DNA from: Octopus vulgaris
Taxonomy: Eukaryota
NCBI GenBank assembly: GCA_951406725.2
Contig: OX597837.1
Location: forward strand, 17,422,001-17,486,000
Reading direction: 5' to 3'
Length of the DNA stretch: 64,000 bases
Shown: positions 22,156-38,188 of the stretch, piece by piece
Layout: the number at the start of each line of letters is the position of its first letter
Position numbering within the stretch: the first letter of the stretch is position 1
The notes under the pieces: generated by a model
Told to the model about the DNA's origin: nothing
The model's input: the letters and a program-made list of their open reading frames with translations, nothing else
The model's database searches: none
Position numbers and translations under genes: made by a program

Positions 22156-22354
22156 GTAGGTCCCGGGTTGATTCGGGGTTAACCACAGTAAATAAGGTAC
22201 TCAATACATAGCAGAGTAAAATTAATTTATTATATAGAAGGAGCTTCTACAGGACTAGAACTATTTCATTCAAGAGAAATCATCAAGAGCTTCCTGATGA
22301 TTTCTCTTGAATGAAACAGTTCTAGTCCTGTAGAACTCCTTCTATATAATAAAT
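22156..22354. mobile_element. (TA)n-embedded fold-back module with two head-to-head HHR copies
   Basis: Arms 22225-22285 and 22295-22354. Plus-strand HHR 22287-22339: gagcttc-CTGATGA-tttc(tctt)gaat-GAAA-cag(ttctagtc)ctg-TA-gaactc; the minus copy retains gaagctc. Confidence 0.8.
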
Positions 22355-23989
22355 ATATATATATATATATATATATATATATATATATATATATATATAT
22401 AACTGGATGACCATATGGAAGAAAAAATATCCCAACTGTACTTTGCTTTCCCACAGATCCTTCCTGTCTACAATATCAAAATCTTTAATCTGAAAGGTCC
22501 AAAAACGCTACATACAGTCCCTTGTTCTGTTCCCTATATTTTTCTTTTGGAGTTACCTGAAGACAAATACTATGCCAGTGATGCTCCTGTTGGCCTTGAG
22601 TTCACATTTATTCTCTGAAAGGTCGTAGATGCTAGGCATATCCTTCGGCTTTCGCAATAGATAATTTTGGTGGGTAAAGTGTAGTGTGTGGAACTGGCCC
22701 CAAATTTTCCATCCGAGGTTCATAGACCATAGTCTAGTAAGCTAGGATAGCGACAGCACGGTCCCAGGGTAGTAGCTTTCATATCTGATTGTTCTCTTAG
22801 ATGCATGATCTGTCAAGGCTATGTGTCCTTCACTTTGGCTTTTTCCTAACAACCTTACATACATATATACTTACAAACATATCTATCAAACTTCTAAACA
22901 GAAGCCATTACTATTATTATTCCCCCTCCCTCTCTTGATAGATCTGTATAACATTTTAGAAATAGCAGCCTAATACCTAAAGCCACACCTTATTATCAAG
23001 GAAGACGAGGCAAGATATTTATGTTTGAACTGTTTTCACATTAATGTCTTTCTCCAATTGAAAACATTAATTATATCCCGTAGAGAGAGATAAAGACAAA
23101 CAATAAAAAAAAACGAAAATTGATAAAATTTCACTATTTGAAAGAAAATGTTTTTCTTCCAAGTAGAGTAAACTATTCTCTCCTGTTTTTTGTTTTTTTT
23201 TGTGGTGCTCGAAGGCAGGGAAGAAGGGAAGGTGAAAGAAAAAGAGAAGAACGATCAGGTTTCATTTGTGACTAATATCTAAAAAAAAGGCCTTTAGGTG
23301 GAGAAATGTTGCTGTCTTGTGTGTCATCTGCCGAGAAATTAGACATTAGATAGCGTACTGTCTATTGGTTGCTTTGTGTCGCAGGGAACATTACACAGTA
23401 GACTGTCTGTTGACTTGTGTCATTCAGTTATTGGAGGAGACTGTAGGATGGAAAATTGAAAGTGTGTTGAATTATGAATCGTCTACAGAGATTAACCATT
23501 AAATAGTAAACAGTTTGGTGTTGTCTTATGACATGTGCTGACGAAATGCCAGCCATTGTTTTGTGTGACGTTAGGTAGATACAGTGTGTAATAATAAATT
23601 TTTAAAATAATAAAATAAATCAGAGAAGAAAAAAGTGTCGGCCAAAAAAATACAATTATACAGAAAAATTCCTAAGTTTGGATAAGTTTTATACGGTTGG
23701 TACAAGGAGACACCTGACGTCGCGGGACTCCCCCTTCATCTAAGCAGAACATTTCTCTGGGGAGGAGGAAGAAGAATGCTTTGATGTTTCCCCCTTGGAC
23801 GAAAGATCAGTATCAGTATCTCTTCTCCATATGGCATCCTAAAGCATTCAAATATAAAGATTCTGTTAACCCAAAGTTAATCCTAATCAAGGACACCTGC
23901 ATCAAAATTATTTCGGCCATAACTAAAATGCCTTCTTTTGTAATTTTAAAACATAGGCGCAGGAGCGGTTTTTTGGTAAGAAGCTCGCT

Positions 23990-25700
23990 TCCGGTTCCGG
24001 TTGTTCTAGTTTTCTTCGCACACCCTTGAAGCTGTCACGCTGGTTTGCAGCGGATGAAAATTGTTTGTGAAAAAGACTCTGCTGTAAGGTAAGGCTTTGG
24101 CTTTTTGGTTCCAGTGGGGGTTTGTTGTTTGAGATAATTATTTTTGTACAAGCAAGAGGTCCTCACTGGACTCTAGGCTCTAGTCTGCCTGCAGTAGAGT
24201 ATATAGTTTTTCTCACTTAATTGTGAGAATTACTGTTTGGGTGTGTATCCTGCCTCCAAACTTAGTTCGAGAATTGTGTTGTTCTCAATTAATTTTGAGA
24301 ATTGTTCGCAGAAAAAGTTGGTTTTTGTGGAATTATACAACAACTGTGAGAAGCTATGTTCCAGTTTCAAATTGAAGGCCCGGAGTACCATGTGGCCAAT
24401 GGATTTTTTGCTGTATGTTTTGAACTGTCGCTTTCTCTTCTTCTATCGTCTATTTTCAAACTCTTTATTGAGCTGTATATTTTTTCTTCTTCCTGTTTAG
24501 TTGAGACTTTCTTTGTGATTTTTCCCTTGAATTGTTTTGAATTTTTTAACTATTATTTGAACTTTTCATTTAACATAACAAAAAACAATGAAAAAATTGT
24601 GGAGTGGGAAATAGTGCCACCCAAGAAATGGTTGGAAGAGTTCGAAAAAAGACGGTAGTTTTGAAGACTTGCTCCAAGTCCTTCGACACCATCGTCGTCT
24701 TTGAGAAAAATGTAATTGAAAAAGAGTTGGCGGGACATATGTCAACTATTAAGTATATCTCTCGGGGGATCAAATACGCAACGGTGTGGTTGCTGTTTGA
24801 CATCCCCGAAGAGGCTCGCAAATTCTGAACTGCCCTCAGGACCAAAATAAGGTCCTAGAGCAGTTGATGTAGATACCGCTCCCTGCTCTCTCATTGAAGG
24901 GAGAAAAGGAGGAAGTCGATGAGGTGGAAACCTCCTCGAAAAAAGCAAAAAAAACGAAAGGTGAGCAACAATGATTGCCCACCGAAGGATCCGCAGGCTG
25001 CGGGAGGGAGGGAGGATCCGCAGGACAAAGCGAAGGAACTCCACCCTTTCGTGGCTCAAAGGAAAAAAAACGGGACATTGCCGGCGTGTTCCGAAGTACC
25101 TTCGGTGGGATTTGTGCCACCGAATTTGGAAACTGTAGATCCCTCCCATGCTGTGGAGGAGGAATTTGTGGTCCTCTTCCATAAGGGAGGGACATTAGAA
25201 AACTTTGTTAAGAAGTTTAAAAAGAAAGGCCGGTGGGAGGAGATTCTGTCCTGCTCGGAGGACCCTGATTGGCCTTCGCAGGTGGCTGCGGAGGTCATAT
25301 GGGAAACCGATCCGTGCAGGATATTGAATCCCTTCCCAGAGGACTCTTTTAGATTCATAGCGAAGTGATCCAGCTTGGCACCGTCTAGGTGCGTCAAAGA
25401 AGCGAAGAGCCTGGTCGGACAGGAAAGTGTATAATGAATATAAATATGAGGCTTAGTGCCTCATTTTTTGCATTATTAAATTATGAAAAAGGTAAGAAGA
25501 TATTGCCTCATAAATGATTTTTGTATTTTGAAGAGGTTTATTGCCTCATAAATGTTTATTCGTACTGAATGTAAGAGGTTTGTTGCCTCGAATATGTAAC
25601 CTAAAAAGAACAATGCTCTCGGGTGGACAGCAATCGGCGGGCGTTGCTTGTTGCCCTCATCTATTATCATTTTGTTAGACATTTCAGATCATTATGTCTT
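23990..25700 (+). mobile_element. Degenerate element with Tx1-like ORF1 remnant and stem-loop-repeat 3' region, no ORF2
   Basis: FEKNVIEKELAGHMSTIKYISRGIKYATVWLLFDIPEEARKF aligns by eye with Tx1 ORF1 VKNEMVEKCMAPIWSKVSHVNRGARSATVEAHFETAEEARQI. The 3' part is shared with 42300-42540 (-). Boundaries approximate. Confidence 0.6.
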
Positions 25701-25757
25701 CGTCCAGCCCGTAGCTTCCTTTCTTTATAAGGCCTTTATGGCCAATGTAATAAATAA

Positions 25758-37151: not shown

Positions 37152-37703
37152 ATTAGACAACACAAACTTGTCACAAATGACAAGAGAATTTTTTTTTTCC
37201 AAAAATAACCTATACAGGTTAAGAGTTCACACAAAAAAACACAGAAATTTTCTACCCCGAAGGGCGAAAATTACTGGGTCAAAAACAGTTCAACAATGAT
37301 ATTACGTGTAACACGACAAAGTAGACAAACGGAAACGAACTCACACAACTATTTGCAGCAACAGAAAAATATTGGTATACTCCGAGGAAAAATTCAAAAA
37401 ACACCGGTTTTCGATGAAGGAGACCTTTGCAAATAATATTTAACGTTTTTCCCAGCAACCACGGTCACTGATTTAGAAAAACTGTCTGAAAGCATTAATA
37501 AATCTCCGAACGAGATATAAACAGTAACCGCTCGACAACGTAAAGTGTACTAGCCATCTGAATATGGCTAGCCACTGGGGGTGGGTGTTACTGACGCTTT
37601 TAGCCCCAGAAGATCGACGTCTCCAGCTGGCCTTAGACACAATTTCAGTGCCCTTGTGTTATTTGCAAAGGGAGGTCATCCTCCCTCGAAAACCTAAGTG
37701 ATA

Positions 37704-37748
37704 CATACGGACTATAGTTACAAGGTTTTTGCCTCTCGTCAACGTATG
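37704..37748 (-). ncRNA. Variant type I HHR, copy 2 (identical to 31841-31885)
   Basis: Same 45 nt; forms the apex of the 230-bp inverted repeat. Confidence 0.75.
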
Positions 37749-38188
37749 GTAAACTATAGTCCGTATGTATCACTTAGGTTTTCGAGGGAGGATGATCTCC
37801 CTTTGCAAATAACACTAGGGCACTGAAATTGTGTCTAAGGCCAGCTGGAGACGTCGATCTCCTGGGGCTAAAAGCGTCAGTAACACCCACCCCCAGTGGC
37901 TAGCCACATTCAGATGGCTAGTACACTTTTACGTTGTCGAGCGGTTACTGTTTATATCTCGTTCGGAGATTTATTAATGCTTATATATATATATATATAT
38001 ATATATATATATATATATATATATATATATATATATATATATATATATATATATATATATATATATATATATATATATATATATATTGGTAAAAACGGTA
38101 AGATAGCAAAAGTAAGAAAGAGACCTCAATATTATATAATAGAGGAAATTTATCTGTAAAATAATATGTGACAATTATTCGGTAGACA

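Follow-up and report, generated by a model that had tools for sequence, protein, structure and literature searches.

The analyzed sequence is a 64,000-nt stretch of the Octopus vulgaris genome (contig OX597837.1 of assembly GCA_951406725.2, positions 17,422,001 to 17,486,000 of the forward strand; hereafter, the window), in which five fold-back modules resembling short insertions of Penelope-like retroelements were found. In four of them, the turn of the fold-back overlaps a hammerhead ribozyme or a hammerhead remnant. The link between the position of the apex and the hammerhead is probably real in some families and is not a general rule; most likely, the turn falls on the 5' half of the ribozyme in these families since their RNA begins there. 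The explanation that best covers the data as a whole, to which we assign a probability of roughly 55%, is that the modules may consist of two separately primed complementary DNAs (cDNAs), the longer one running off an RNA that starts with the ribozyme, with geometry producing the overlap otherwise.

In all five modules, an inverted 5'-truncated copy adjoins the 5' end head to head, and a (TA)n repeat adjoins at least one end. Offsets below are in nucleotides (nt), counted from the base immediately preceding the predicted cut; the start (5' end) of the loop-bearing arm is denoted Y, and the inner end of the opposite arm X. The modules contain the following parts:

22157..22224, minus strand: putative tail extension of the left arm of module 1, between the arm and (TA)n, judged by its position and by a motif resembling the tails of modules 2 and 5
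22225..22285, minus strand: inverted arm of module 1, inner end at the core (-37)
22286..22354, plus strand: loop-bearing arm of module 1, starting 1 nt upstream of stem I (-46) and ending at (TA)n
22287..22338, plus strand: complete type I hammerhead of module 1, core CTGATGA at 22294-22300, cut after 22332, called by the scan
28145..28298, minus strand: inverted arm of module 2, inner end in stem III (-4)
28299..28577, plus strand: loop-bearing arm of module 2 with a 5'-clipped hammerhead and an 85-nt tail (28493-28577)
30428..30617, minus strand: loop-bearing arm of module 3, extending from (TA)n as far as -40 and containing a degenerate hammerhead, read by eye, whose core lies at 30613-30607 and whose cut follows 30577
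30618..30645, plus strand: 28-bp inverted arm of module 3, from -26 to +1, outer end 1 nt beyond the cut
31675..31891, minus strand: downstream tandem copy of module 4, its short 3' end adjoining (TA)n, with a hammerhead whose core lies at 31879 and whose cut follows 31847
37402..37754, minus strand: one 352-nt unit of module 4, loop-bearing arm with its start at -41 to -44, with a variant hammerhead at 37748-37704 and the cut after 37710
37752..37982, plus strand: inverted arm of module 4, inner end at the stem III palindrome (-9), with a long tail, ending at (TA)n
7209..7992, minus strand: partial tandem of module 5 (7209-7729 and 7730-7869) with an inverted arm at 7868-7992 (plus strand) and a hammerhead near 7470-7545

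A first-pass annotation of the window had indicated the fold-backs of modules 1-4, and all four were recovered at the same places, with arm identities of 61/63, 153/161, 25/28, and 226/230. Its placement of the turn of module 1 at the border of stem I and the core was correct (Y -46, X -37), as was that of the inverted arm of module 4 at the stem III palindrome with an aac microhomology (X -9); Y of module 4 lies at -41 to -44, 3-6 nt upstream of stem I. For module 2, the annotated 5'-clipped hammerhead is indeed present in the loop (stem II at 28300-28326, GAAA at 28327-28330, cut after 28341, read by eye), keeping stem II, GAAA, stem III, TA, and the last base only of the core. The suggestion that its arms start at the cleavage site was rejected, as X lies at -4, 4 nt before the cut; Y lies at -42/-43. 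In module 3 (Y -40, X -26), a plus-strand reading of the ribozyme was rejected in favour of a degenerate one that fits better on the minus strand, with the core TTGATAA (2 mismatches), stem II gcgt/acgc, and GAAA, and with stem I not formed. It was called by neither hammerhead scan of the window and is probably a hammerhead remnant; on the plus strand there is no core, and a 9-bp hairpin would pair over GAAA.

The type I hammerhead lies near the 3' end in every module, being complete in module 1, with a variant core in module 4, and, as read by eye, clipped in module 2, degenerate in module 3, and with a bulged stem I in module 5. The variant core TTGACGA/GTAA (UUGACGA in RNA, with GUAA replacing GAAA) is shared by both tandem copies of module 4 (31847-31885 and 37710-37748). 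Only the hammerheads of modules 1 and 4 were called by the scan, the other three being read by eye. In its relaxed form, the scan gave 7 matches in the window versus 2.75 in shuffled sequences at a score of 20, as compared with 109 versus 0 at loci outside the window and 126 versus 1 in a further set; for this reason, the window calls are weaker than those from outside loci.

In modules 1-4, which belong to four unrelated families, Y varies within 7 nt (-40 to -46), a regularity noticed after the fact; the longer arm has its start 40-46 nt before the cut, at the 5' edge of the ribozyme or at its core. With exponential arm-length nulls, the probability of at least four hits in five modules was 0.0004-0.002, before ascertainment is considered. 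Permutation of arm lengths among the five modules gave values from 2/120 to 48/120, depending on the end and criterion chosen. When four window hairpins without family assignment are counted as misses, 4/9 hairpins are hits, and with a hit rate of 0.15-0.25 the P value is 0.03-0.17. The tendency of turns to fall on the ribozyme in the window is suggestive. An origin of the fold-backs as assembly artefacts was rejected, since the arms differ in sequence, tails, and flanks.

The evidence that carries the explanation comes from a family found outside the window, F49, with at least 49 copies in the stretches read of G001, one assembly rich in animal DNA; most copies came from a search scoring the best 40 of 107 candidates. 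Because the F49 query itself was cut at -35, true ends were told apart by their upstream flanks. Seventeen copies continue upstream past -35. Among the copies listed, 13 of the 31 short 5' ends lie at -35/-34, at 11 loci with different flanks, where 0.6 ends would be expected from the neighbouring positions; a single end falls in the next 25 nt upstream. With a long reference, 12 of the 37 determined ends fell within a 4-nt interval. The TATA box TATATAAA starts 31 nt upstream of the hotspot, with CCAAT farther up, and such a spacing is typical for polymerase II starts. We infer from this sequence context that the hotspot is a putative transcription start; a splice acceptor at -35 was rejected, as there is no AG. 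The extended stem I begins with the base G(-35), which forms its outermost pair. The data support a fixed boundary at the 5' edge of the ribozyme in F49 that coincides with the predicted transcription start. As a separate observation, the F49 core is mostly CCGACGA rather than CUGANGA (for example, L204 11505-11570), although this is the most abundant family seen in G001.

The fold-backs of F49 show the same boundary. The longer arm ends at -35/-34 in 9 of 15; of these 9, 8 have a second arm whose end falls within -35 to -17, a pattern that matches modules 1, 3, and 4. One arm is long-tailed and the other short in 12 of 13 arm pairs, and in 5 of the 13 the long tail is carried by the 5'-shorter arm. 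This tail placement favours two separately primed cDNAs over snap-back, because a 5'-shorter arm made by snap-back copying of the longer cDNA would have had nothing from which to copy its tail. By analogy, the window families may behave like F49.

For module 4, 1258 contig pieces from one run of the same species label were aligned to the unit and their depth was summed. The depth, which is not equivalent to copy number, reached about 600k close to the 3' end; it was 105-134k over the ribozyme, with 32k in the last bin, and dropped to 15-21k immediately upstream. About 80% is thus lost before the ribozyme, and most of the remainder is lost at its 5' edge. No strand-change joint was seen in these 1258 pieces, a result that is uninformative. 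Raw reads of three runs with the same species label (X20-X22) gave 0 alignments to this high-copy repeat, which is likewise uninformative.

The generality of the tendency was assessed with pooled families of another animal. A search with related endonuclease domains yielded 102 loci, 79 of which contain the 109 hammerhead calls mentioned above. In G001, 143 stretches were read (1.52 of about 12 Mb); they were picked by ribozyme or family matches, so that clipped copies are under-sampled. Scripts placed 47 of 523 inverted repeats, and 20 more rows, on ribozyme-bearing references. Hand curation merged the nested partial rows, removed any that were tail-to-tail, flank, or duplicate rows, and added five junctions missed by the scripts (L194 twice, L096, L107, L209); some arm lengths were estimated. 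The curated set comprised 46 junctions of non-F49 families and 15 of F49. In the non-F49 families, X lies inside the ribozyme in 12 of the 46 junctions, with 12.3 expected by permutation (P 0.63) and 10.3 under the exponential null (P 0.33); inside or up to 12 nt upstream there are 17, with 15.3 (P 0.31) and 12.4 (P 0.08) expected, respectively. The permutation is conservative because ribozymes lie at similar distances from the end. Seven junctions outside G001 (L018, L056, L065, L066, L087, L088, L101), which were chosen for the endonuclease and kept out of the pool, gave one inside and one within 12 nt. As a general rule, the apex tendency proposed in the first-pass annotation is not borne out by these junctions. 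In addition, a family A pattern gave 0 matches in metagenome and genome contigs, and no relative was found in viral contigs.

According to the explanation preferred here, the modules would be ordinary short insertions of Penelope-like elements or of the non-autonomous units of these elements. The two strands of a (TA)n target would both be nicked and would each prime a separate cDNA, one from each of the two internal start sites of the element; one arm would be tailed and the other not because the two cDNAs start at different internal sites. The two cDNAs, which we infer to be joined to each other, would meet head to head through a microhomology of 0-8 nt. The longer cDNA would often end at the end of the template RNA, where reverse transcriptase (RT) runs off the 5' end. 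In some families, the terminal-repeat promoter would start the RNA at or just before stem I, so that the longer cDNA ends at the 5' edge of the ribozyme; the shorter one would stop a few to tens of bases earlier and thus end inside it. In other families, the overlap would arise from geometry, the ribozyme lying within one arm length of the 3' end.

Several points weigh against this explanation. The decisive family F49 belongs to another animal and to another clade. In module 2 the boundary is the junction of the core and stem II rather than the ribozyme edge, and for modules 1-3 the upstream sequence is absent. The depth step of module 4 could stem from subfamilies or an edge effect, and no TATA box is located 30 nt above the module 4 boundary, TAAATATT lying 40 nt and TATTATTT 36 nt above it. 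In the non-F49 families, a TATA-like word 27-34 nt upstream is loosely enriched at most, at 10 of 32 ends versus 4.8 expected (P 0.013) at a lax score, and at 2 versus 1.5 at the strict score. Finally, the tandem copy in modules 4 and 5 would permit snap-back too.

It is unlikely that geometry and ascertainment alone account for the window: arms measure 30-230 nt, a distance from the 3' end within which the ribozyme also falls, and the modules were recognised by their ribozymes. Such a reading agrees with the lack of excess in the 46 pooled outside junctions, with the position of the module 1 cut about 20 nt from the short end (chance of a hit 0.2-0.44), with permutation values of 16/120 to 48/120 when counted from the short ends, and with the four unassigned hairpins and the doubtful ribozyme of module 3. 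It is opposed by the low probability of 4/5 under the exponential nulls, by the agreement of Y across four unrelated families, by the depth step in module 4, and by F49, which shows that such a boundary can exist. Release by the fold, a version of the fold idea in the first-pass annotation, appears rather improbable. Here, once the second strand of a stem had been copied by RT, refolding of the RNA and cDNA would set the cDNA end free at the 5' edge of stem II or I. The boundaries between the core and stem II in module 2, L066, and L194 9214-9375, and the stem I edge in module 1, would suit it, as would G(-35) of F49, which is the outermost stem I pair as well, and the 17 of 46 junctions inside or just upstream of the ribozyme. 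However, the fold is common to all families and a sharp peak occurs in one only, 17 F49 copies read through the fold, and the TATA spacing is left without explanation; a blocked RT would also be expected to halt at the 3' edge of the fold.

Self-priming, in which one nucleic acid folds back at a palindrome, was inferred for rotifer elements from palindromes at inverted junctions in PMC3846280. The no-loop junctions of F49 sit on a TCGA palindrome (L114, L205) and the inner end of module 4 lies at the stem III palindrome, but palindromes could equally anneal two cDNA ends, and this origin is made very unlikely by the 5 of 13 F49 pairs, probably joined by module 1, in which the 5'-shorter arm bears the long tail. 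The first-pass annotation had suggested that the ribozyme fold or its cut end sets where RT stops, snaps back, or switches template; its positional link stands, probably, for some families, but not for the reasons given, the cut end being at most a minor route. None of the window junctions connects both strands of a single hammerhead stem, so hammerhead stems were rejected as snap-back primers, in line with the F49 tails. It is extremely unlikely that a self-cleaved 3' product usually serves as the template, with the cDNA ending at the cut, or that the cut end primes: none of the eight inner or 5' ends of modules 1-4 lies at the cut. On the other side, the outer end of the inverted arm of module 3 lies 1 nt beyond it, and of the roughly 100 outside ends that could be determined, 4 fall at 0/+1 (L194, L198, L133, L239), a marginal excess over the estimated expectation of about 1.4; the end of L181 is compatible with +2 to +9. 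Uncut RNA was the main substrate in PMC11167929, and minimal ribozymes cleave poorly in PMC4209133. Cleaved RNA may be used now and then as a template.

The twin-primed explanation shares with the Penelope-like enzyme of green anole Poseidon, characterized in vitro in PMC11167929, the cutting and extension of both target strands, two RT start sites that bound the tail, and the dispensability of ribozyme cleavage. A pseudo-long terminal repeat (pLTR) with a TATA box and an initiator (Inr)-like motif was described in PMC3846280, and neighbouring hammerhead pairs on opposite strands in PMC4209133. Inverted truncated copies, tails, partial tandems, and microsatellite targets of Penelope-like elements are described in PMC8557442 and PMC3846280, which bears out the earlier remark that an inverted partial terminal repeat is a known trait of these elements. 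The modules resemble canonical endonuclease-positive (EN+) insertions in the head-to-head inverted copy, the one-arm tail (modules 2, 4, and 5, and putatively module 1), the partial tandems (modules 4 and 5, absent in modules 1-3), the microsatellite targets, and the hammerhead near the 3' end. They differ from them in having no open reading frame (ORF) and in a tail length of about 47-85 nt versus 30-40 nt.

Module 4, the only module with a retrozyme-type tandem carrying a hammerhead per unit, is similar to non-LTR (non-long terminal repeat) retrozymes (PMC7229834; bioRxiv 10.64898/2026.07.22.740005) in its non-coding tandem with a period of 352 nt and a predicted type I hammerhead per copy. 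It differs from them in the variant core UUGACGA/GUAA, the inverted arm, and the tail. A miniature inverted-repeat transposable element (MITE) or other fold-back DNA transposon was rejected as an identity of the modules, since the arms end unequally by the tail and the loop is contiguous element sequence.

In the twin priming of L1, both nicked strands prime cDNA and microhomology joins the products. The mechanism proposed here would share with it the two primed cDNAs and the microhomology joint. In L1, unlike here, annealing of the second primer takes place at an internal site of the RNA, and the pieces have no overlap; in the modules, both cDNAs would start near the 3' end, which gives a true inverted duplication.

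The fold-back structure is already known; what would be added, modestly and mainly on the basis of F49, are a rule for the position of the turn and an argument for two cDNAs. The origin of the inverted ends of Penelope-like elements and the role of the hammerhead are open questions in the literature covered, in which, mostly without subscription papers, nothing was found relating the fold-back junction to the ribozyme or a start site. Two predictions follow from the F49 pattern: the RNA should have a capped 5' end at one named base, and each insertion should derive from two cDNAs primed separately. If geometry alone holds for the window, the finding is an ordinary one. We regard as tentative, with the odds leaning against it, the extension of the mechanism across Penelope-like elements, whereby a promoter-started short RNA would begin with the hammerhead, a dimeric enzyme would copy it from both nicked strands at the two start sites, and the cDNAs would be joined. 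If true, the genome would preserve in its fold-back apices a trace of transcription starts and, rarely, of ribozyme cuts, and the inverted pLTR, long without an explanation, would arise by twin target-primed reverse transcription and not by self-priming.

Module 5 was correctly given as an exception in the first-pass annotation, its turn being located outside the ribozyme, with ends about +71 and +130 downstream of the cut. A self-BLAST of the window detected nine short-loop hairpins, of which five belong to hammerhead families and four are without family assignment (58564-58775, 57304-57393, 9956-9994, and 31305-31498). At 77% likeness, the hairpin at 58564-58775 is old, and it contains a T-rich motif resembling the module tails; that at 31305-31498 is nested around (TA)n.

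The tandem of module 4 is interrupted by a long interspersed nuclear element (LINE):

31907..37398, minus strand: Tx1/L1-like LINE with a zinc knuckle, apurinic/apyrimidinic (AP) endonuclease, RT, and zf-RVT

This element, which we take to be of the Tx1 type, is flanked by a 19-bp target duplication (31888-31906 and 37399-37417), which ends a few bases upstream of the second module 4 hammerhead, at roughly the start of the fold-back arm. The idea that the LINE specifically targets the ribozyme unit was rejected, as a second, truncated copy (41114-42199, 83% alike) has a different flank.

The window as a whole is AT-rich, microsatellite-rich animal DNA. Penelope-like ORF remnants were located at 11769-12449, 49478-48771, and 30307-30155 by tblastn with P0001, which was found by aligning three window ORFs and bears the RxW and DKT motifs given for the Hydra clade in PMC8557442. 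Pfam gave no match for these remnants, and none of modules 1-5 is tied by sequence to an ORF such as the RT plus GIY-YIG ORF of EN+ elements. In the Rfam search of the window, hammerheads were absent among 85 matches. Four further hammerhead-like motifs without fold-backs have cores starting at 12714, 29304, 38245, and 2358; TATAAAT lies 21 and 9 nt before the cores at 12714 and 29304, respectively, a spacing that would place a start inside stem II. A window copy at 38087-38268 starts 23 nt ahead of its core.

Outside the window, several bacterial genome bins (L080-L102) contain animal retroelement DNA; G001 includes hundreds of short contigs with such DNA, and L101 lies within a 491-kb contig. 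The inverted arms of L144 847-923 and L181 7222-7380 show internal jumps with breakpoints at -23 and -42, positions within or next to the ribozyme. At the fold-back junctions of L207 (7560-7600) and L215 (3085-3105), short stretches of the element itself are copied again in tandem, as if priming had occurred repeatedly.

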